Shown here piece by piece: positions 1-9,042 of a stretch of 10,543 nt of DNA. Below the pieces are notes generated by a model. It did no database searches, was not told the DNA's origin, and worked only from the letters and a program-made list of their open reading frames with translations. The stretch lies in the UHGV virus genome UHGV-0097031; one strand, written 5' to 3'. The position numbers and the translations under genes were made by a program. Every line of letters begins with the position of its first letter. Position 1 is the first letter of the stretch. This DNA is from a virus.

Positions 1-163
1 GTCGTCGCCGGGCGTGGCTGACCTGGCAGGTGGAGGCACCACCGCCACAACTCCTTTCAATTCATCATATAGCCGCTCAGGCTGTAACCCTTAATTAATA
101 CGAAGTTTCGACATCTCTATCGGTTTAACCGAGAGATGGTCGCGCGTGTAAAAAGGAGACGTT

Positions 164-739
164 ATGTTAATGGCGAACGATAACGCATATGCAGAAGAAG
201 ATCTCATTTTGAGTGACTTCATAGGGAAGCGGGAACGCTGGACCCAAAAGCGAGAGGAACTTTACGCCTCATTAGTTCGCAAAGGCGTCAATATCGAAAC
301 CGCACAGAGCGGCGATATGACAGTGGTAAGCGTTGGATTGCACGGTGTAAGCGTGTCAGCAATCAATCATGAGCCATACGTTGCGTTATCCGAGTCAATG
401 GTAAGGTTAGTTAAGTTCCTGAAGTACACAGAAGCGAATAATGTAATCATTGGCAAAAAGAATATCCCTTTTTCCTCGGCTTTTTACTGGATGATGAAAG
501 GGCTTGATGCCCGGCGGACATCATGGCCTAAAGGGAGCTATATATCGATGTTCCGTGGCAGCATTGGCAGCAAAGAAAAGCTCTTCGAATTCTTGCCGGA
601 AGAGGCATTCGATATTGTGGAAGGGTGCGATGTGATGGTTATGCCTCGGCTGGTAATGATGAATGGAGACTTACAGGCACAGACAGACTGGTTCGCCACT
701 GGCGTGGATATTATCGCGACTGACTGGGAGGCATTCTGA
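164..739 (+). CDS. Hypothetical protein with C-terminal DUF2829-like region
   Basis: 191-aa ORF; AGGAG (154-158) 5 nt upstream of ATG 164. C-terminal part (FSSAFYWMMKGLDARRTSWPKG ... TDWFATGVDIIATDWEAF) shares the F-S-x-A-x-x-W...G...RR..W..G start and W...D-[LI]-[LI]-A-x-DW end pattern with the clearer DUF2829 domain of the ORF at 8365-9042. By-eye comparison only. Confidence 0.55.
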   Translation: MLMANDNAYAEEDLILSDFIGKRERWTQKREELYASLVRKGVNIETAQSGDMTVVSVGLHGVSVSAINHEPYVALSESMVRLVKFLKYTEANNVIIGKKNIPFSSAFYWMMKGLDARRTSWPKGSYISMFRGSIGSKEKLFEFLPEEAFDIVEGCDVMVMPRLVMMNGDLQAQTDWFATGVDIIATDWEAF

Positions 740-1131
740 TGTACGAGACCACAAAATTAAGCATTCACGAAGTATCCAATGTGGAGTGGAATATCGTCAC
801 CTGTAAGATTGTATCGTGCAATGCTGCGCGTACTGATGCAGGCCATAAGAGTACGATAACAGGCTACATGGTAATGGCTTATAGGGGATTGAGAGTTCAC
901 TTTATCTGGAAAGCTCGGCAATTGACACCATTCAGAGAGCCGTCAATGCCATTAGAGGTAGAACAGGATTATTTAAGCCTGCCGGAAATAGACGGTGCAA
1001 CGCTGGTGGATTCTGATGGTCGTAAGGCTGATTTTGAAGTCAGCTTAAAGGTGGCGCAGGCCGTAATTAATAACTCACGTGGTAAGTGGATCGCTAAGGT
1101 AAAACACGTCGTTCGCTTATCTCGCTGGTAG
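739..1131 (+). CDS. Hypothetical protein
   Basis: 130-aa ORF; its ATG overlaps the upstream stop (TGATG at 737-741), suggesting translational coupling with the 164-739 gene. No recognisable motifs. Confidence 0.5.
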   Translation: MYETTKLSIHEVSNVEWNIVTCKIVSCNAARTDAGHKSTITGYMVMAYRGLRVHFIWKARQLTPFREPSMPLEVEQDYLSLPEIDGATLVDSDGRKADFEVSLKVAQAVINNSRGKWIAKVKHVVRLSRW

Positions 1132-1150
1132 TGTTAGATGAATGGAATTA

Positions 1151-1164
1151 ATTTTCTAATATAA
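1151..1164 (+). promoter_or_regulatory. Candidate repressor operator (ATTTTCTAATATAA) upstream of the packaging operon; a weaker inverted half-site lies at 1132-1142
   Basis: Member of a recurring TTTCTAA[C/T]A motif family also seen at 5563-5580, 5644-5658 (minus) and 6972-6987, all in intergenic positions before operons. From memory, the CTAATA core resembles the P1 C1 operator consensus ATTGCTCTAATAAATTT. Confidence 0.3.
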
Positions 1165-1239
1165 CCAACTTTTTGCCAGTCTATACAGAAATAACATTCT
1201 CATTATCATCCCCTCGGTCATTTCCTGCCTGGGGGATTA

Positions 1240-1632
1240 ATGGAGCATATCAGCAGCGCAGAAATTGCGGATATCATGATTAGGGCTGACTGCTATCTGA
1301 CAGTCACCGAAATCACCACTCTAGCTAAAGAAAAATATCCTCACCTTCATGTTTCACGAGTAAGTGTAACCAACATCATTCGGCATTTTGTGCGGTCAAG
1401 CCGAGCTATTTGTGAGCTTGATGATCGTGTTTACCCACGGAAATACTGGTTGCATGGCCTGAACGGATATCAGTTCAAGGTGCGCGGGCGCACGCCTGAA
1501 TACGGTAGCTTACTGGTTAAAAACTGTAGCAGGAAATCAGTCGAACAGGCGCGAAAAGAGCAACGAGAGCTGGTGGACATGGCGAATAAGCTGTGGAATG
1601 CCGCCGTTAAAAAGCGTGGTGTTGCTTTATGA
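1240..1632 (+). CDS. Hypothetical protein; positional candidate for a late-gene regulator (Lpa-like position upstream of pacA)
   Basis: 130-aa ORF; GGGGGA (1231-1236) just upstream of ATG 1240; its stop overlaps the downstream start (ATGA at 1629-1632). In P1 the gene before pacA is lpa (from memory); no sequence-level confirmation. Confidence 0.5.
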   Translation: MEHISSAEIADIMIRADCYLTVTEITTLAKEKYPHLHVSRVSVTNIIRHFVRSSRAICELDDRVYPRKYWLHGLNGYQFKVRGRTPEYGSLLVKNCSRKSVEQARKEQRELVDMANKLWNAAVKKRGVAL

Positions 1633-2993
1633 GTCTGGTTAATTGGGAGGAGCACCGCGCCCGCTTTATAGCGTTGCGTGAAGAAAAAGGGATCACTGTA
1701 AAGGAATACTGTGAGGAGCATGGCCTTAGCTTCAATACAGCCAGAAAGCATCTCAATATGAAAAAAAATGAGGTGCGGTCGCAGGTAAAGACAACAAAAA
1801 AAAGCACCAAATCACCTGAAAAAAAACGGGCGGGAAGAGCAACAAAAAAGCTGGAAGAGGGTGCAGAAAAAACAAAATTTACAGAAATTGACAATTCGCA
1901 GGGTGCAGGTTCTTTCCGAAGTATGCCAAGAAAGAAAACTTCGGATCATGAAAGTAATGCCAATAATAACAATGAGATAAAAGAATCTGTCAGGAGATCA
2001 TTGCGCGAAAAAATGGCGAAAATGATCCCCGAAGAAGATAAAAGCGCCCCAAAAATTGAGGGATCTTCAGCAATGATCCCTGGCGGTGCTGTGCAGCGTG
2101 CCACATTGCCCACTACGAATGTGGCTCGCGATATGATGAAGAACGGCGCAGAAGAACACCTGCGGTTAGCAATTCAAATGGCGCAAGAGCGCGCACTTCA
2201 GTATCAAAGCATTGTTGATCAGGAGGCCGAACGTCTACAGGCGGAAATAGACGCCTTGGGCGATAAAGAGCCAGAAGGAATGCACCCTGGGCAGCGCCTT
2301 CTCGGTCTAATCAGTGACGCGGCCTACTACATGAATGATTTTATCAGTAGGTTGGCAGCTATATATCAGTCCGAACAAAAGCTGCGACAGGGGGATGAAA
2401 AGCTTCGTCAGAGCGCTCGCCAGCAAGCATTCAAAGAGGCTGAGGCCAGAGAAAAACTCGAATTAGCACGCCTACAGGCCGAACAGCGTGGCAAAGAGAT
2501 TGAATATCGCATTGGCGCTGACGCACGCGCAGCCAGAGTTATCGCCGCCGCTATACGTATGCGTGAGCGCGAGGAACTGGATGATATCGGTGTTGCTGAA
2601 TACATCGAGCGCCAGGGGGTCAGCGTCCCGGCTATCCTCGCGGCGCGCGCGGCGAAAGCTATCACTCTTCTCGAACCACCTGTTTCTGACGTCAATGATG
2701 TTGATGATGAACAGCTGGACAAAGAGGCAAGGGAGTTTGCAACGCTTCAGGCTAACCATCCGCAATGGCTGGCAGAGCGCCGGGCGGATGTGGCAACCAT
2801 TGTTGAAGAATTGGGGTGCGGAGATTACGACCGCAATGGCGAGCGTAAAGCTGGAGAATTCGAGGCCAACGACGAAGAGCTGGATATTGACCCTTCGGCA
2901 ACGGCTGAAATTTACGGTGATTATGATGCATCTGATGCAGGGTATGACGCCGGAGATGATGATATCGCGATAGAACCGCCGGAGGATGATTAA
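1629..2993 (+). CDS. pacA: Terminase small subunit, PacA-like
   Basis: 454-aa ORF directly before and overlapping the large terminase gene (TAATG at 2991-2995). N-terminus (WEEHRARFIALREEKGITVKEYCEEHGLSFNTARKHL) looks like the HTH of small terminase subunits; Lys-rich linker, coiled-coil-like middle and strongly acidic C-terminal tail. Confidence 0.65.
   Translation: MSLVNWEEHRARFIALREEKGITVKEYCEEHGLSFNTARKHLNMKKNEVRSQVKTTKKSTKSPEKKRAGRATKKLEEGAEKTKFTEIDNSQGAGSFRSMPRKKTSDHESNANNNNEIKESVRRSLREKMAKMIPEEDKSAPKIEGSSAMIPGGAVQRATLPTTNVARDMMKNGAEEHLRLAIQMAQERALQYQSIVDQEAERLQAEIDALGDKEPEGMHPGQRLLGLISDAAYYMNDFISRLAAIYQSEQKLRQGDEKLRQSARQQAFKEAEAREKLELARLQAEQRGKEIEYRIGADARAARVIAAAIRMREREELDDIGVAEYIERQGVSVPAILAARAAKAITLLEPPVSDVNDVDDEQLDKEAREFATLQANHPQWLAERRADVATIVEELGCGDYDRNGERKAGEFEANDEELDIDPSATAEIYGDYDASDAGYDAGDDDIAIEPPEDD
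1943..2079. other. Candidate pac (packaging initiation) site: cluster of GATC-containing hexamers inside pacA
   Basis: Five GATC hexamers in 137 bp: GGATCA (1943-1948) and AGATCA (1995-2000) on the left, TGATCC (2023-2028), GGATCT (2061-2066) and TGATCC (2074-2079) on the right, arranged roughly as mirror images; AATGATCCC occurs twice (2021-2029, 2072-2080). P1 pac lies inside pacA and is built from Dam-methylatable TGATCA/G hexamers flanking the cut site (from memory). Confidence 0.3.
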
Positions 2994-4480
2994 TGGCTGG
3001 AGGGCGCAAGATTAAATGCGTCACCAGCGATCCACGCTGGCGCGATATGGTAATCAAATACCGCTACAACTTTACCCAGGCTGTTGTCGATATTTTTGGG
3101 ATGTTCCCCTCCCACCAGCAGCAGCAGATCATTCAGTCCGTGCAGGAAACGGGGAGTAGGACGACCGTCACGTCCGGACACGGAACGGGGAAGTCGTCCC
3201 TTACCGCGATGTTGCTGTTGATTTTCATGATCCTGTTCCCCGATGCCCGTGTCATCATTGTTGCTAACAAGATAGGCCAGGTAAAAACAGGCGTATTCAA
3301 ATACGTTAAACAGTATTGGGCGAATGTAGTTAAGCGTCATGGGTGGTTGCAGACCTATTTTGTCCTCTCTGACACCATGTTTTATGAGCGCTCCCGTAAG
3401 GGGATTTGGGAAGTTCTCTGCAAAGGTTATCGACTCGGCAACGAAGAAGCGCTGGCGGGTGAACACGCGGCACATTTGCTTCTAATTCTGGATGAAGCAT
3501 CTGGTATATCTGATAAGGCGATCGGCGTAATGACCGGTGCTCTTACTGAAGAAGATAACCGGATGTTGATGCTATCCCAGCCAACAAGGCCAAGTGGTTA
3601 TTTCTACGATTCGCACCATTCTCAAGCAAAAACCCCAGACAACCCGAAAGGGATCTGGACAGCAATTGTTCTTAACTCGGAAGAATCACCGTTCGTCACA
3701 CCACAATTCATCAAGCAGAAGCTTCTGGAATATGGCGGGCGCGATTCTATTGAGTACATGGTCAAGGTGCTTGGTCAGTTCCCACGAGAAATTAACGGCT
3801 ATTTGCTTGGTCGTGATGAATGCGATCGCGCTGCTCGCCGCAAGGTGTTGTTGGAGAAAAACTGGGGATGGGTGGCAACGGCTGACGTTGGTAATGGGCG
3901 AGATAAGTCGGTCCTCAACATCTGCAAGGTATCTGGTCACAGGGATAAGCGGCGCGTTGTTAACTTTAAGGTAATGGAGATGCCTGGCACTATGGACCCA
4001 TTGGCCTTTGCTGACTTCATATATAACGAATGTACGCCGGAAAAATACCCGAATATAACAATCGCGGTTGATGCTGATGGTTTTGGTTCTGATACGTGTG
4101 CGCAGTTGGTGCGTCGTGGTGCGAACCCGGTACGTATTCGGTGGGGAAAACCCATGTTTGCGAACAAAGACAGGGAGCGATTTGTTAATCAGCGTGCCTA
4201 CGCAAATATTATGGCGCGAGATGCCATAAAGTCAGGGCGTATGCGGATAGACAGTGACCCTAAAACGGCAGAGCAAGCGTCAAAAATCCCCTTTTTACTG
4301 AATGAAGAAGGGAAAATGGCGATGATGCGCAAAGAGCACATGCGGCAAAAGCTAAACATCAAATCGCCTGACCGATGGGATACCTACTGCTTCACTATGC
4401 TGGTGGACTATGTGCCTGCTAATGAAGATATTGGTGCCGAAATGGCAACTTTCCGAGATCAGGTTCTGGTGGATATATAA
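2993..4480 (+). CDS. pacB: Terminase large subunit, PacB-like (ATPase plus nuclease)
   Basis: 495-aa ORF; GGAGGA (2981-2986) 6 nt before ATG. P-loop TSGHGTGKSS, Walker B LLLILDEASGI, Asp-rich C-terminal half (e.g. VDADGFGSD) consistent with the terminase nuclease domain; size and position match P1 PacB (from memory). Confidence 0.85.
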   Translation: MAGGRKIKCVTSDPRWRDMVIKYRYNFTQAVVDIFGMFPSHQQQQIIQSVQETGSRTTVTSGHGTGKSSLTAMLLLIFMILFPDARVIIVANKIGQVKTGVFKYVKQYWANVVKRHGWLQTYFVLSDTMFYERSRKGIWEVLCKGYRLGNEEALAGEHAAHLLLILDEASGISDKAIGVMTGALTEEDNRMLMLSQPTRPSGYFYDSHHSQAKTPDNPKGIWTAIVLNSEESPFVTPQFIKQKLLEYGGRDSIEYMVKVLGQFPREINGYLLGRDECDRAARRKVLLEKNWGWVATADVGNGRDKSVLNICKVSGHRDKRRVVNFKVMEMPGTMDPLAFADFIYNECTPEKYPNITIAVDADGFGSDTCAQLVRRGANPVRIRWGKPMFANKDRERFVNQRAYANIMARDAIKSGRMRIDSDPKTAEQASKIPFLLNEEGKMAMMRKEHMRQKLNIKSPDRWDTYCFTMLVDYVPANEDIGAEMATFRDQVLVDI

Positions 4481-4481
4481 A

Positions 4482-4498
4482 GCCCCGCGATGCGGGGC
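4482..4498. terminator. Bidirectional intrinsic terminator between convergent pacB and the 4508-5545 gene
   Basis: Perfect hairpin GCCCCGC-GAT-GCGGGGC starting 2 nt after the pacB stop (4478-4480) and 9 nt before the minus-strand gene's stop (4508-4510); the minus strand has a T-rich run (TTTATATAT) after the stem, the plus strand only a weak one. Confidence 0.6.
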
Positions 4499-4507
4499 CG
4501 GTTGTGA

Positions 4508-5545
4508 TTACCAGAGCTTCGCGGCGTACTGCGTTTGGGGGAATGTGTATCCGTAACGTTCTTCGATTGCTTTGCCGTATTTTTTACGAGCTTCATTCAG
4601 TTTTATGCCGGTCAGGTCGTCTCCAGAGGCCATCATTACGTCTAACAATTCCAGATCCATTTTATCCAGCCTTGCCATTGCTTCACGTGATGTACGTATC
4701 TTACGCTCAATGATATGGCGAATAGCCGGATCGGCATCCTCCAGCATCTTAGCGGATTTCTGCTTAAGGCTTTCATTGCGAATATCGATGTTCCTTAAGA
4801 TGTACGACTTCGCAACGTAGCTTGGCTGGTGTTTTTCCAGGTCACGAACACGATATAAGTTAAAATCGCCGAGAAGGCTGCAAGGTACCGATTCGACGCC
4901 AGAATAAATTGTAATGCTCCGGCGCTCACCAACATTATTGACAACGGGGATCGTTGTCTTCGGTAGTCTTGCGAAAACCAATGCGCCATGTGCGCCAACT
5001 CTAAAGCGAGAAAGGGCATTGCTGCCTTCGATGTTTGTTGTCAGCACAACATCTGTATATGCCTCTTTACGCGCCCGGTAGATCTCGCCTTCAGGCTCAG
5101 CTTCAAAGAAGCGCTGTTCTTCTTCAAGAGCACCTACGATTTGAGAAAAAACCCTATTTTTCAGGCTTTTCTTTATGATTTTGTCGTATTTTTTGAGCAA
5201 TTGTTCACGTGTAAATGTACGTGTTGTTGTAGCGCTTTGCACAACAACATGCGTGCTTTGATTGGTGTCCTCAATGATGAATGGGATCGGAGAATATACA
5301 GACTCAACAATGTTCGACGCTTTGCCGTCGGCATCGCGGCACATGTCAACGAAGGCTTTCCATTCAGCAAGACATTTTTCAGCTTCTTCTAATATGTTTT
5401 GGTCATGCGTTAATGCAACATGGCGGAATTCCTCGCCAGCATAACTGGTATCATGGAAAACAGAGTTTGCGACCACCAGCTCTTTCCACCGTTCAGCGGT
5501 TTGCAGGAACCGTTTGTACTCTTTCTCGATCGACTTCTTACTCAT
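4508..5545 (-). CDS. Hypothetical 345-aa protein in the immunity-region position (between pacB and lox-cre); candidate immunity repressor or accessory gene
   Basis: Longest ORF in this interval; AGGA 5 nt upstream of its ATG (minus strand); own AT-rich upstream region with paired operator-like inverted repeats; convergent with pacB and divergent from cre, as in the P1 immC region. I could not recognise any conserved domain by eye. Confidence 0.7.
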   Translation of the reverse strand: MSKKSIEKEYKRFLQTAERWKELVVANSVFHDTSYAGEEFRHVALTHDQNILEEAEKCLAEWKAFVDMCRDADGKASNIVESVYSPIPFIIEDTNQSTHVVVQSATTTRTFTREQLLKKYDKIIKKSLKNRVFSQIVGALEEEQRFFEAEPEGEIYRARKEAYTDVVLTTNIEGSNALSRFRVGAHGALVFARLPKTTIPVVNNVGERRSITIYSGVESVPCSLLGDFNLYRVRDLEKHQPSYVAKSYILRNIDIRNESLKQKSAKMLEDADPAIRHIIERKIRTSREAMARLDKMDLELLDVMMASGDDLTGIKLNEARKKYGKAIEERYGYTFPQTQYAAKLW

Positions 5546-5562
5546 TATTCCTACTCGATTTA

Positions 5563-5662
5563 GTTTTCTAACATAAAATTACTATGACAAATTTATGTCG
5601 AATAACAGAGTGAGTAAAGGATCGAACTGTGATTTTTTGTCATCAATTTTAGAAAACCAACT
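5563..5662. repeat. Pair of ~28-30 bp imperfect inverted repeats (candidate operators) in the promoter region of the 4508-5545 gene
   Basis: Left arm (plus, 5563-5591) GTTTTCTAACATAAAATTACTATGACAAA; right arm read on the minus strand (5636-5658) GGTTTTCTAAAATTGATGACAAA. Blocks GTTTTCTAA, AAAATT and ATGACAAA are identical, with two small indels; the arms flank a ~44-bp centre. Confidence 0.45.
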
Positions 5663-5754
5663 GTATAAACCACGCTTCGCAAATTAAAGACCATGAAGGC
5701 AACGTGTTACTGGTCAGAATCAATCTGTGATGGATTAAAAAAAATCGCCATTTT

Positions 5755-5788
5755 ATAACTTTAAATAATTGGCATTATTTAAAGTTAG
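5755..5788. other. lox-like recombination site (13-bp inverted arms, 8-bp spacer)
   Basis: ATAACTTTAAATA - ATTGGCAT - TATTTAAAGTTAG; the arms are inverted repeats of each other at 12 of 13 positions, and the outer ATAACTT is identical to the outer 7 bp of the loxP arms (loxP: ATAACTTCGTATA). Lies 152 bp upstream of the Cre-family gene. Confidence 0.65.
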
Positions 5789-5796
5789 GCTATAAT
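5769..5796 (+). promoter_or_regulatory. Candidate sigma70 promoter reading toward cre, overlapping the lox spacer and right arm
   Basis: -35 TTGGCA (5769-5774), 16-bp spacer, -10 TATAAT (5791-5796); a TGATCA Dam-type hexamer at 5807-5812 lies just downstream. Confidence 0.4.
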
Positions 5797-5939
5797 TATG
5801 GGTAGATGATCAGTATTGACATCACTGAAAATACGTGCCTCGAATCAAAGGCTTGAATCTTGAAAATTAACTTATAGCTACCCTGTCATTTTTATATTTT
5901 TCGCGTAGCGTCATCTGTATATAGAGGTTAAATAGTTTC

Positions 5940-6968
5940 ATGAGTGAATTAATTATCTCTGGCAGCTCCGGTGGTTTTCTGCGCAACATTGGCAAAGAGT
6001 ACCAGGAGGCCGCAGAAAACTTTATGCGGTTCATGAATGACCAGGGGGCTTACGCGCCGAATACTTTGCGCGATCTCCGGTTAGTGTTTCACTCCTGGGC
6101 GAGATGGTGTCACGCTCGCCAGCTCGCCTGGTTCCCGATCTCACCAGAGATGGCCCGCGAGTATTTTCTTCAGCTGCATGATGCTGATCTGGCTTCGACC
6201 ACCATTGATAAGCACTACGCCATGCTTAACATGCTGCTTTCGCATTGTGGCCTTCCGCCACTTTCGGATGATAAAAGTGTTTCTCTGGCTATGCGGCGCA
6301 TCCGGCGTGAAGCGGCAACTGAAAAAGGCGAACGAACAGGCCAGGCTATACCGCTGCGGTGGGACGATCTGAAACTGCTCGACGTCCTGTTGTCCAGGTC
6401 AGAACGGCTGGTGGACCTGCGCAACCGGGCTTTTCTCTTTGTTGCATACAATACGCTGATGCGTATGTCGGAAATCTCGCGTATTCGTGTAGGAGATCTG
6501 GATCAAACAGGTGACACTGTCACGCTACATATTTCACACACGAAGACAATAACGACCGCCGCCGGGCTTGATAAGGTGCTTTCCCGTCGCACTACCGCTG
6601 TGCTGAATGACTGGCTGGATGTTTCCGGGCTTCGCGAACATCCTGACGCAGTGCTGTTCCCGCCGATACACCGTAGCAATAAGGCCAGGATCACGACAAC
6701 GCCCCTTACTGCACCTGCAATGGAGAAAATATTCAGCGACGCCTGGGTGTTGCTGAATAAAAGAGATGCTACGCCAAACAAAGGAAGATACCGGACGTGG
6801 ACCGGGCATAGTGCACGCGTCGGGGCCGCTATTGATATGGCTGAAAAGCAGGTGTCTATGGTGGAGATCATGCAGGAAGGAACCTGGAAGAAACCGGAAA
6901 CACTTATGCGGTATCTTCGCCGTGGCGGCGTGTCTGTGGGGGCTAATAGCCGCCTGATGGATTCGTAA
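5940..6968 (+). CDS. cre: Cre-family tyrosine site-specific recombinase
   Basis: 342-aa ORF that aligns by eye along its whole length with P1 Cre (343 aa): SWARWC / SWAAWC, WFP, LNML, SVSLAMRRIRRE / AVSLVMRRIRKE, AYNTLMRMSEISRIRV / AYNTLLRIAEIARIRV, HTKT / RTKT, WTGHSARVGAAIDMA / WSGHSARVGAARDMA, EIMQEGTW / EIMQAGGW, MRYLR / MNYIR. All catalytic positions (Arg, Lys, His-x-x-Arg, Trp, Tyr) are conserved. Confidence 0.9.
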   Translation: MSELIISGSSGGFLRNIGKEYQEAAENFMRFMNDQGAYAPNTLRDLRLVFHSWARWCHARQLAWFPISPEMAREYFLQLHDADLASTTIDKHYAMLNMLLSHCGLPPLSDDKSVSLAMRRIRREAATEKGERTGQAIPLRWDDLKLLDVLLSRSERLVDLRNRAFLFVAYNTLMRMSEISRIRVGDLDQTGDTVTLHISHTKTITTAAGLDKVLSRRTTAVLNDWLDVSGLREHPDAVLFPPIHRSNKARITTTPLTAPAMEKIFSDAWVLLNKRDATPNKGRYRTWTGHSARVGAAIDMAEKQVSMVEIMQEGTWKKPETLMRYLRRGGVSVGANSRLMDS

Positions 6969-6971
6969 ATT

Positions 6972-6987
6972 AAATTTCTAACACATC
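6972..6987 (+). promoter_or_regulatory. Candidate operator (AAATTTCTAACACATC) between cre and the downstream accessory operon
   Basis: Same TTTCTAACA core as the motifs at 1151-1164 and 5563-5580; followed by a short inverted TTAGA (6991-6995); sits 4 nt after the cre stop and ~55 nt before the TTG start at 7042. Confidence 0.3.
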
Positions 6988-7041
6988 TTTTTAGATTAAC
7001 GCCTTTGCTGTAAAGTACCCTCGCCTATTTAGGAGGGTGCT

Positions 7042-7386
7042 TTGCAGAGTCAAATCACGGAATCAAGACGCTTCAAGGTGGATGGTTACACCGTAACCTT
7101 CGCCGCTGGTGTTAAGAACAGTCATGCTGTCGTTGTGTTCGGCATCATGACCGGGCTTGAGGCCGTCCCTGTGTTTACCCTCGAAAAAAACTGGCGAAAT
7201 CTGGAGGAAGCAGAAAGCTACGTCCGGAAAGTAACCATCATTGCCGCCGAAAAACTCCTGGCCCACTATCAGGAAAATTATCGCACTATGGTCGAGAAGA
7301 TTAATCTCGCTTTCACTCGCCCCACTACCGGCTTTATTGCACCGGATACTAATGCCGGTCGATATCCTGCAAGGGGGCGTCGGTGA
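7042..7386 (+). CDS. Hypothetical protein (TTG start)
   Basis: 114-aa ORF starting at TTG 7042, preceded by a strong AGGAGG (7031-7036) at 5-nt spacing; the first in-frame ATG would remove ~35 residues. No recognisable motifs. Confidence 0.5.
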   Translation: MQSQITESRRFKVDGYTVTFAAGVKNSHAVVVFGIMTGLEAVPVFTLEKNWRNLEEAESYVRKVTIIAAEKLLAHYQENYRTMVEKINLAFTRPTTGFIAPDTNAGRYPARGRR

Positions 7387-7859
7387 AAACTTATTACCCA
7401 TCTCTGAATTGTTACCCGTCTTCCTATCCAGAATTATCCGGGAAGCTGTTAGCTCTATTAGCTAAAGCACCTACGGAATGGTTTAAGCCAGTCGTTATCA
7501 ATCCACACTTCCTGGGTTACGGATCTGTTCGCACTCGTAACGAACTCAAAAACCTACTGGCGCATGGATTCATTCGACACCGTGCCGGGAAAGGCTATCA
7601 GTTAGCGATTGCGCCAGAAGAGGCCGTGCGGCTATTCGCATATCGTGACAGCCAGACAAAAACTCGGGTAATAGCTCAAATACTTCATAACGGCAGCACC
7701 TATGCCCGCCAGTTTGGCGGCGACACGTCGCAGTTCTTGCGGGCGGTGCGATCGCTGGAGGAGCAAGGAGTTATTGAAAGTTCCTGTCTTCCTGTTCCTA
7801 CCGTTCCACATATCAAACGTCGGGTTTACACCTTCACGCAGAGAGCTAAAAAACAATGA
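7383..7859 (+). CDS. Hypothetical protein, possibly winged-helix DNA-binding (GTG start)
   Basis: 158-aa ORF; GTG start overlaps the upstream stop (GTGA, 7383-7386) with AAGGGGG 5 nt upstream. The segment LRAVRSLEEQGVIES...KRRVYTFTQRA resembles the recognition-helix/wing pattern of winged-helix regulators (weak, by eye). Confidence 0.5.
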   Translation: MKTYYPSLNCYPSSYPELSGKLLALLAKAPTEWFKPVVINPHFLGYGSVRTRNELKNLLAHGFIRHRAGKGYQLAIAPEEAVRLFAYRDSQTKTRVIAQILHNGSTYARQFGGDTSQFLRAVRSLEEQGVIESSCLPVPTVPHIKRRVYTFTQRAKKQ

Positions 7860-8350
7860 TTTACGTAAAAGTGAAACGCCTACATCCGGCAGCAAAACTT
7901 CCAGCTTATGCCACCTCCGGATCGGCGGCGATGGATTTTGAGGCTGTTGAAATAAAACCATGCGTCGATAGCAATGGTGCAATTTCCTCAAGCTGGTGGG
8001 TGTATACCGGACTGGCTATGGAGATCCCGCCCGGCTGGTGTCTGAAACTCTATCCGCGATCAGGATTGGGCTGCAAAAAACATACTCGCCTGGCTAACTG
8101 CGTAGGAATTATCGACTCCGATTATCGCGGCGAAATCATGGCAAAACTGATTACTGATCCCGGCGGGGAAGGCGTTTGTCTCAAGCCTGGAATGGCTGTC
8201 ATGCAAGGAATTTTTGAGCGTGTTGAACAAGTCTCACTAGTCGAGGTTGAGGAACTCAACGAAACGGAGCGTGGTGCTGGTGGCTTTGGTAGCACATCGG
8301 AAGGCCACTTTGAAATTAAGCGTTCACCGCTTCAGTACGAAAAGTTATAA
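7856..8350 (+). CDS. dut: dUTP diphosphatase (trimeric dUTPase family)
   Basis: 164-aa ORF with the conserved dUTPase motifs in order: YATSGSAAMDF (motif I, variant of AGxDL), PRSGLG (II), GIIDSDYRGEI (III), AVMQGIF (IV), ERGAGGFGSTS (V). Alignable by eye with E. coli Dut; ~16-aa C-terminal extension. Start overlaps upstream stop (ATGA, 7856-7859). Confidence 0.9.
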   Translation: MIYVKVKRLHPAAKLPAYATSGSAAMDFEAVEIKPCVDSNGAISSSWWVYTGLAMEIPPGWCLKLYPRSGLGCKKHTRLANCVGIIDSDYRGEIMAKLITDPGGEGVCLKPGMAVMQGIFERVEQVSLVEVEELNETERGAGGFGSTSEGHFEIKRSPLQYEKL

Positions 8351-8364
8351 GCAGAGAAAAGACT

Positions 8365-9042
8365 ATGAATAACAAGGCAACGAAAGAGCTTTTTAAGCTC
8401 CTTCCCAAATACAAAGCTCACAAAAACGTTAGTGCATCGAAAATCAAAAATGTTGTTATTTTCGGAGTAACTGATACCCCACTTTGGGGCAGCATCGAAC
8501 TCGTTGAACCTAAAGGGGCAACAGTTTGTGTTGACGCAATGTTTTTACAAAAACACCGACCAAAAACTGGCGGGTATCTGATCGTTTATGAAAACGGTTA
8601 TCTGTTCTATGCCCCGGAGAAACCATTTGAGGAACGCTATGGCCTGGTTAACGACGCCTCCAAAAATGGAACCACGGTCATCATTACGGATGACAACGGC
8701 GCGATGATTAATCTTACCGGGAGCGTAACTATTTCTGCTGGTGGCATCACCACCCAGCAAGAAGAAATCGACCTTGAAGCAGCCGACTTTTCTGACGCGC
8801 TGATGTGGCTGAAGGATGGCAAGAAAGTTGCTCGACGCGGGTGGAACGGCGAAAACCAATTCTGCTGGCTGGTTCCTGAAGGACAGTACCCGGCACGAAT
8901 GGAAGCCATTAAGGGATATTTTCCCGGCGACCTCGTTCCGTATGGTGCTTATTTCGCCTTAAAAAATGCACAAGGTGTAGTTGTTCCGTGGGTGCCTTCA
9001 GTTGGCGACCTGCTGGCCTGTGACTGGTTTGTTGTGGAGTGA
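8365..9042 (+). CDS. Two-part protein: unknown N-terminal region (~140 aa) fused to a C-terminal DUF2829 (Tad2-family) domain
   Basis: 225-aa ORF. C-terminal ~85 aa (DFSDALMWLKDGKKVARRGWNGENQFCWLVPEG...PYGAYFALKNAQGVVVPWVPSVGDLLACDWFVVE) matches the DUF2829 pattern I recall (F-x-x-A-L-x-x-L-K-x-G-K-K-V-x-R-x-G-W-N-G ... P-W-x-x-S-x-x-D-L-L-A-x-D-W). N-terminal part unrecognised. Confidence 0.7.
   Translation: MNNKATKELFKLLPKYKAHKNVSASKIKNVVIFGVTDTPLWGSIELVEPKGATVCVDAMFLQKHRPKTGGYLIVYENGYLFYAPEKPFEERYGLVNDASKNGTTVIITDDNGAMINLTGSVTISAGGITTQQEEIDLEAADFSDALMWLKDGKKVARRGWNGENQFCWLVPEGQYPARMEAIKGYFPGDLVPYGAYFALKNAQGVVVPWVPSVGDLLACDWFVVE

Follow-up and report, generated by a model that had tools for sequence, protein, structure and literature searches.

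A divergent Tad2-like domain in a second, two-domain protein of a D6-like phage-plasmid

Tad2 is the most versatile known phage sponge family for bacterial immune signals, with ligands that include 3' cyclic ADP-ribose (3'cADPR), His-ADPR, N7-cADPR, cUMP/cCMP and cyclic dinucleotides, accommodated in at least two pockets (PMC12393519, PMC10680739). Does a single phage element encode two proteins built on this fold, each joined to a different N-terminal module? The question arises in a 10,543-nucleotide stretch of the virus genome UHGV-0097031 (hereafter, the window), part of a D6-like, P1-family phage-plasmid. A first-pass annotation of the letters alone had proposed that the C-terminus of the product of one open reading frame (ORF164, named after its first position) repeats the spacing pattern of the DUF2829 domain that ends a second product (ORF8365), that the N-terminal modules of the two are unrelated, and that both could be sequestration proteins on the same small ligand-binding fold. 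Our analysis led to one main finding: the C-terminus of ORF164 is a diverged homologue of the Tad2/PF11195 (DUF2829) immune-signal sponge fold. The features on which the argument turns are the following.

164–739, plus strand: ORF164, coding sequence of a 191-amino acid, two-domain Tad2-like protein (PHROG 7362, function not known).
182–439, plus strand: N-terminal domain of ORF164, residues 7–92; helix, helix, three strands and a long helix, weakly like a double-stranded RNA-binding domain (dsRBD), in no Pfam family.
464–736, plus strand: C-terminal divergent Tad2-like/DUF2829 domain of ORF164, residues 101–191, with the Pfam match at residues 103–190 (nucleotides 470–733).
8365–9042, plus strand: ORF8365, 225 amino acids; an N-terminal module weakly like phage L Dec, followed by a canonical Tad2 domain.
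8773–9039, plus strand: canonical Tad2 domain of ORF8365, residues 137–225, with G-W-N-G, Ser and Asp all retained.

The sequence strings on which the proposal had been built were all found where it placed them. In ORF164, FSSAFYWMMKG spans residues 103–113, ARRTSWPKG residues 116–124 and TDWFATGVDIIATDWEAF residues 174–191; in ORF8365, FSDALMWLKDGKKVARRGWNGEN and VPWVPSVGDLLACDWFVVE span residues 142–164 and 207–225, respectively. The two Trp residues lie 55 residues apart in ORF164, compared with 49 in ORF8365. Because a pairwise BLASTP comparison of the two proteins was not significant (E = 1.1–1.7), such a likeness seen by eye could be due to chance. Residues 103–190 of ORF164 matched the Pfam family PF11195 (Tad2-like/DUF2829) with 39.1 bits (E = 1.1e-9, profile positions 3–72 of 73), which exceeds the 25 bits set as the curated gathering score, and residues 141–224 of ORF8365 matched it with 80 bits (E = 1.9e-22). 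The gathering score was also exceeded by all members of the two-domain family of ORF164 that were tested (15/15).

Family alignments of the two C-termini, built from database searches beforehand, were then compared with HHalign, and the two profiles aligned over 86 columns—the whole domain—with a probability of 98.5% (P = 1.7e-15) at 19% identity. The relationship persisted when ORF164 was represented by its close relatives only, a set devoid of possible bridging sequences (96.6%, P = 6e-10), and 20 column-shuffled control versions scored between 7 and 21, against the observed 81. Moreover, the close-family profile of ORF164 matched the solved SptTad2 (8wjd) over residues 100–189, again the whole domain (E = 0.014). 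Searching the PDB with ORF164 by phmmer returned chance malate dehydrogenase matches only, and an NCBIfam search gave no match. The N-termini behaved differently from the C-termini, with an HHalign probability of 1.6% for N-terminus against N-terminus and of at most 1.6% for N-terminus against C-terminus. Profile comparison, which the first-pass annotation had named as a check, is thus significant both between the two C-termini and to DUF2829, and its reading of homologous C-termini behind unrelated N-terminal modules holds. Likewise, both proteins do belong to one element; in phage D6 they are represented by orf6 and orf114.

From a structural perspective, AlphaFold2 predictions made with alignment A3—48 sequences comprising the two-domain family, single-domain relatives and canonical Tad2 domains—reached a mean predicted local distance difference test (pLDDT) score of 90.3. 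The predicted C-terminal domain opens with a helix (residues 103–111), continues as an antiparallel sheet and has a short helix (residues 180–184) ahead of the last strand; the topology of Tad2 has been described in the same way (10.1101/2023.05.01.538930). A Foldseek search of the PDB placed Tad2 structures in all eight top positions (8wje, 8kbk, 8smg, 8kbj, 8v3e, 8wjd, 8smf and 8kbi; E = 1.7e-4 to 6.4e-4), with template-modelling scores normalised to the target of up to 0.83 and a root-mean-square deviation of 2.9 Å for 8v3e, so that structure prediction, another check that had been named, agrees with the profile comparison. Among predicted viral structures (BFVD), the best named matches were "Thoeris anti-defense 2-like domain-containing" or DUF2829 proteins, many of them 150–240 residues long. 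The core residues are invariant across the 48 diverse sequences, and ORF164 keeps this structural core as F103, A106, G113, R118, W121, W176, D182, A185, D187 and W188.

The N-terminal domain is of a different nature. None of the family members has a Pfam match in this part of the protein, and membership of the dsRBD family was considered and rejected, because the fold matches are weak; a sequence-profile match and a KKxAK-type basic motif are both missing, and the domain carries an extra N-terminal helix. Its scores against dsRBD and HicB-N-terminal-type α-β-β-β-α domains lie in the range of fold analogy rather than membership.

Does the shared fold also imply a shared ligand? In the SPO1 Tad2 complex with 1''–3' glyco-cyclic ADP-ribose (gcADPR), W25 and W73 make van der Waals contacts and N26 and D79 polar ones, with further contacts and coordinated waters involving I63, T65, D67, H71, S76 and T78 (10.1101/2023.05.01.538930). 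The equivalents in HgmTad2 are W21, N22, G23, M76, A78, T82, V84, W87, L88, S90, T92 and D93, and gcADPR binding is lost in the W21A/N22A and S90A/T92A/D93A mutants (PMC10680739). In a contact table aligning ORF164, ORF8365 and four solved Tad2 proteins, ORF8365 kept all of the presumed ligand-contacting residues (G-W-N-G, the second Trp, Ser and Asp), whereas ORF164 kept only W121, W176 and D182. The G-W-N-G loop is replaced in ORF164 by S120-W121-P122-K123, one residue shorter, such that the phosphate-binding Asn-Gly becomes Pro-Lys and the Gly before the Trp becomes Ser. In the S-x-T-D turn, Ser is replaced by T179 and Thr by V181, with W176 and D182 retained. The first-pass annotation was therefore right about the fold, and a sequestration role is only partly supported for ORF164, where the canonical contacts are replaced.

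These residues bear directly on another functional proposal, in which ORF164 would be a standard anti-Thoeris sponge, redundant with ORF8365 and with 3'cADPR/gcADPR binding intact. The Trp and Asp residues would then carry most of the binding, and K123 would take the place of Asn at the phosphate. W121, W176 and D182 do correspond to W25, W73 and D79 of SPO1 Tad2, which provide van der Waals and hydroxyl contacts (10.1101/2023.05.01.538930), and NCBI names one relative "Thoeris anti-defense Tad2 family protein". However, ORF164 has Asn-to-Pro, Ser-to-Thr and Thr-to-Val changes at positions that are altered in the HgmTad2 mutants that lose gcADPR (PMC10680739), and G-W-N and Ser, invariant in 14 canonical domains, vary in the ORF164 family. 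Two redundant sponges in a 90-kb element would also be less parsimonious than divergence, and we regard this proposal as improbable.

Conservation across the family sharpens the contrast between the two kinds of domain. For each column, the share of sequences with the most frequent residue was taken, and these values were averaged.

14 diverse canonical domains: mean pairwise identity 41%; pocket positions 0.74; rest of the domain 0.46.
14 non-redundant two-domain family members: mean pairwise identity 32%; pocket positions 0.45; rest of the domain 0.47.

G, N, S and D never vary among the 14 canonical domains, while G, N and S are all variable in the two-domain family. Within the closest relatives the loop is nonetheless fixed: S120-W121-P122-K123-G124 does not vary in alignment A1, whose seven sequences reach as far as a relative with 53% identity (P0008), and P-K-G is also retained in P0011 at ~42% identity. 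Given that S-W-P-K-G is fixed there, the remodelled loop would be under constraint in the D6 subclade. The second pocket described for HgmTad2 and SptTad2, which binds cyclic dinucleotides, involves R31, K46, S47, F70 and N85 (HgmTad2 numbering) in a long β2–β5 insertion of 35–41 residues (PMC10680739). The corresponding insertion of ORF164 is of intermediate length (~31 residues) and shares an L-P motif with the long insertion of SptTad2. Taken together, the fold is kept, as apparently is a Trp-lined cleft, and neither characterised pocket is conserved at its polar contacts.

On this basis we favor, with a confidence slightly short of even, the reading of ORF164 as a diverged member of the Tad2 family with a counter-defence role and a changed specificity, probably oligomeric and not redundant with the canonical ORF8365. 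By analogy with other Tad2 domains, its Tad2 domain would assemble through helix α1 and the β-sheet into an oligomer, the inter-subunit cleft of which would be lined by W121, W176 and D182. The polar contacts for the diphosphate and ribose of 3'cADPR-type ligands appear replaced in ORF164 and variable in the family; hence, ORF164 is most likely not a duplicate of ORF8365. The altered specificity could consist in a different small-molecule signal or in a different binding mode, with the N-terminal domain supplying an extra interaction or assembly function. Published work agrees with this reading on three counts: the Tad2 family is versatile, Tad2 is widespread in D6-like phage-plasmids (10.1101/2025.09.12.675607), and, by the estimate of Li et al., a functional gcADPR site is missing from only ~1% of short Tad2 proteins (PMC10680739).

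Part of our own evidence weighs against this reading. When AlphaFold2 was given seven close relatives only, residues 7–92 were predicted with confidence and the C-terminal half fell below a pLDDT of 50; furthermore, since the 48-sequence alignment held canonical Tad2 sequences, the model obtained from it is corroboration rather than independent proof. The near equality of pocket and non-pocket conservation in the two-domain family (0.45 versus 0.47) fits loss of the pocket as well as its diversification. At the cyclic-dinucleotide positions, ORF164 has F130 (with R131 shifted by one), E142, F143, V159 and T174, so the HgmTad2 residues are not kept. Finally, a scan for promoters and terminators upstream of ORF164 found none above expectation.

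The variability of the ligand-contact positions, set beside a structural core that is the only invariant part of the domain, is also what would be seen in a degenerate scaffold. Ligand binding would then have been lost, the Tad2-like domain would merely oligomerise or stabilise, and function would reside in the N-terminal domain (e.g., RNA binding or binding of host or phage proteins), not necessarily involving signal sequestration. We judge this unlikely, though deserving of serious weight. An exhaustive HMMER search of 1.8 billion representatives returned only 29 proteins at E ≤ 1e-3. Both domains are shared by P0011–P0014, P0016–P0019, P0021, P0022 and P0032, and the list beyond this set consists of single-domain or differently fused Tad2-like proteins, ending in canonical ones (GWNGKG...WLASQTDMLA.DW). 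Within HMMER's reach the N-terminal domain was not found alone, but only fused to the Tad2-like subtype with the non-canonical pocket—an association that, along with its confidently predicted fold and a downstream partner gene conserved in two lineages, speaks for a scaffold. On the other side, conservation is lower in the N-terminal domain than in the C-terminal one (9–46% versus 23–63% identity to ORF164 among these two-domain proteins), and the sole invariant residues of the N-terminal domain (G41, G61 and A74) look structural. Both cleft Trp residues are present in every member and Asp 182 in most. Moreover, the same non-canonical W-P/W-A motif is seen in single-domain proteins (P0023, P0024, P0027, P0028 and P0030), which argues that the altered domain does not need the N-terminal one to function.

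A more specific version of the counter-defence reading can be formulated from the same observations. The retargeted cleft around the two Trp residues would capture an immune signal or another metabolite not bound by any sponge described so far; the N-terminal domain would tether or regulate it, perhaps with help from the orf5 product encoded downstream; and D6-type elements would carry two non-redundant Tad2-derived counter-defence proteins. In this detailed form we hold the proposal to be decidedly doubtful.

The genomic context of ORF164 was examined next to its sequence, and the relevant neighbors in the window are listed below.

154–158, plus strand: Shine-Dalgarno sequence AGGAG, 5 nucleotides before the ATG at 164, kept in six related elements.
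739–1131, plus strand: ORF739 (D6 orf5), 130 amino acids, PHROG 7004; its ATG overlaps the TGA of ORF164.
1240–1632, plus strand: lpa, late promoter activator (PF25716, E = 1.4e-56).
1629–2993: pacA.
2993–4480: pacB.
4508–5545, minus strand: c1-type repressor, 345 amino acids, annotated as similar to P1 c1.
5940–6968: tyrosine recombinase, annotated as dre in AY753669.
7856–8350: dUTPase.

The D6 records AY753669 (against window positions 884–8164) and MF356679 (against positions 3–5771) are 96.6–97.2% identical to the window over the matching stretches, and some Salmonella and E. coli plasmids match the first 400 bases of the window with 100% identity. This identity, together with the gene set, identifies the element as a D6-like phage-plasmid of the P1 family. 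The c1-type prophage repressor (4508–5545) had no Pfam family at E ≤ 1. The ORF164 protein is 100% identical to phage D6 orf6 (ASR76378.1), annotated as "hypothetical protein"; its best protein cluster comprises 356 member sequences, and DNA matching window positions 1–1300 is present in 119 PLSDB plasmids from Escherichia, Salmonella and Shigella. ORF164 is a genuine gene that looks expressed. A strong Shine-Dalgarno sequence precedes it, its stop codon runs into the next start (TGATG, 737–741), and ORF739 is probably translationally coupled to it. ORF739 belongs to no known family, and no PDB relative was found for it.

The position of the gene is maintained over considerable sequence distance. 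Three distant two-domain members could be placed on contigs, two of them ~92 kb and phage-plasmid-sized (one from Pantoea, one from an ENA assembly) and one of 12 kb. In all three (L002, L004 and L005), the gene, a relative of ~20% identity, lies upstream of lpa-pacA-pacB, which is the slot it occupies in D6. In L004, a homologue of ORF739 (6582–6977; also given as 6582–6980) follows the distant two-domain Tad2-like gene with overlapping stop and start, and matches ORF739 over its full length (BLASTP E = 1e-8, 24% identity). This arrangement suggests that ORF164 and ORF739 form a conserved gene pair; the ORF739-type partner is absent in two other lineages. Small ORFs directly upstream of the distant homologues are mutually unrelated. 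In the Pantoea-type relatives, a two-gene module encoding proteins of 94 and 155 amino acids is found between the two-domain gene and lpa (L002, 7107–7869; L004, 7427–8189). The second of its genes has a weak PemK toxin match, so that the pair may be a toxin-antitoxin (TA) module; the D6-type elements are without it at this place.

A conserved place beside lpa and the pac genes, outside any known anti-defence island, is also compatible with ORF164 having no part in counter-defence, and being instead a developmental or structural accessory protein that happens to be built on DUF2829, or else a toxin, in line with the label "MW1434 family type I TA system toxin" that some copies bear in RefSeq. 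Fusions of DUF2829 to tail-fibre repeats and to weakly Dec-like modules point the same way. Nevertheless, all DUF2829 proteins characterised to date are signal sponges. The toxin name goes back to an 81-amino acid S. aureus prophage ORF that was listed on bioinformatic grounds alone (PMC6266405). We set aside type I toxin identity, which would mean a small hydrophobic peptide under the control of an antisense RNA, for ORF164, a protein of 191 amino acids with two predicted α/β domains, unlike the short toxins of 34–100 amino acids listed there (PMC6266405); no search for an antisense RNA was made. We give a role outside counter-defence little credence.

Several features upstream of ORF164 are recorded here in their own right. 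A stem-loop at 108–141, ~15–20 nucleotides before the ribosome-binding site of ORF164, has the core CCGG-N5-CCGG or the variant TCGG-N5-CCGA. Of the cells in six related elements, 83% are paired, sliding the partner lowers this to 32–51%, and two pairs show compensatory changes, whereas the folding energy is unexceptional (z = -1.0 and -0.1); the stem-loop could be a regulatory or processing element of the 5' untranslated region. The block at 63–104 (CATCATATAGCCGCTCAGGCTGTAACCCTTAATTAATACGAA) is largely kept in a copy that is 74% identical to the window over the region, with several substitutions in its 3' half. Its 21-base core (66–86) is found only once in the window, the block gave no sigma-70-like promoter call, and positions 1–170 contain no repeated operator-like motifs. 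Farther out, in the phage D6 sequence L001, an Rfam tRNA match (58.5 bits) lies at 2633–2705, between tciB and orf6 and ~300–370 bp upstream of window base 1; this tRNA is absent from the feature table returned for the D6 record. For the two annotated D6 tRNAs at 942–1092, Rfam calls the strand opposite to the annotation.

ORF8365, the canonical partner, is the DUF2829 protein of P1/D6/SJ46-type phage-plasmids. It shows 46–56% identity to functional Tad2 proteins, and phmmer against the PDB returned ModTad2 (9eib, 6e-21), Tad2 (8v3e, 8e-21), AcrIIA7/HgmTad2 (8kbi, 9e-12) and SPO1 Tad2 (8sme, 1e-9). Its N-terminal module (residues 1–135; window 8365–8769) has a weak match to phage L Dec over residues 57–126 (PDB 6e3c, E = 0.011), and by tblastn it matches the annotated "capsid decoration protein" of Pseudomonas phage Dolphis. 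The D6 counterpart, orf114, is a shorter form (146 versus 225 amino acids in the window). Among the relatives of ORF8365, Tad2 is fused to dUTPase (P0114, 241 amino acids) or to a phage tail-fibre repeat (P0060), or is followed by a crAss001_48 domain, PF21825 (P0120 and P0129). The dUTPase gene of the window is the immediate upstream neighbor of ORF8365. Hadary et al. (2025) deliberately removed Tad2 homologs with PF21825 or PDB 6E3C (Dec) domains from their Tad2 survey (PMC12393519), and Dec-like and PF21825 fusions, a frequent type of Tad2 in phage-plasmids, consequently fell outside that functional screen.

The detection of the domain as such is not new: precomputed Pfam annotation lists PF11195 for these clusters, NCBI and Pfam annotations exist for relatives, and modular Tad2 fusions are known. 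Not described in the literature searched are the combination of a family-specific N-terminal domain with a non-canonical-pocket Tad2 in a conserved slot upstream of lpa, and the coexistence of that form with a canonical Tad2 in D6-type elements. A published Tad2 survey used short versions only, of 120–170 amino acids (PMC10680739), and a separate survey found Tad2 in 93% of D6-like phage-plasmids (10.1101/2025.09.12.675607). ORF164 thus constitutes a correct remote-homology call on a gene labelled "hypothetical protein" in the D6 GenBank record. D6-type phage-plasmids occur commonly among clinical E. coli, Shigella and Salmonella, and the presence of both a canonical Tad2 and an altered-pocket, two-domain form makes D6 a tractable natural system for non-canonical Tad2 function. 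If ORF164 binds a new ligand, the range of sponge specificities would be widened; if it binds nothing, the Tad2 fold would have been reused as a scaffold.

How, then, does ORF164 compare with what is known? Its nearest comparison within the element is ORF8365, which lies on the same strand and shares the homologous C-terminal Tad2-like domain, each protein having an N-terminal module. ORF8365 differs in its fully canonical pocket, in the unrelated nature of its N-terminal module and in its location, which is the cre/dUTPase/isaA region and not upstream of lpa. Beyond the element, the solved Tad2 sponges—SPO1 Tad2 (8SME/8WJE), HgmTad2, also termed "AcrIIA7" (8KBI–8KBM), SptTad2 (8WJD) and the Myroides odoratus phage Tad2 (8V3E, 9EIB)—belong to the same PF11195 family as ORF164 and share its predicted fold and the invariant core (F, A, G, R and W...W...D..A.DW). 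They are single-domain proteins of ~90–105 amino acids, whereas ORF164 has 191 amino acids and an extra N-terminal domain, and their sequence identity to ORF164 is only 14–22%. Multi-domain Tad2-like proteins, in which Tad2 is combined with PF21825, a Dec-like module, dUTPase or a tail-fibre repeat, use Tad2 as a module in the same manner as ORF164. What distinguishes ORF164 from these is its partner domain (residues 7–92), which belongs to no described family and is coupled specifically to the subtype of Tad2 with a non-canonical pocket.

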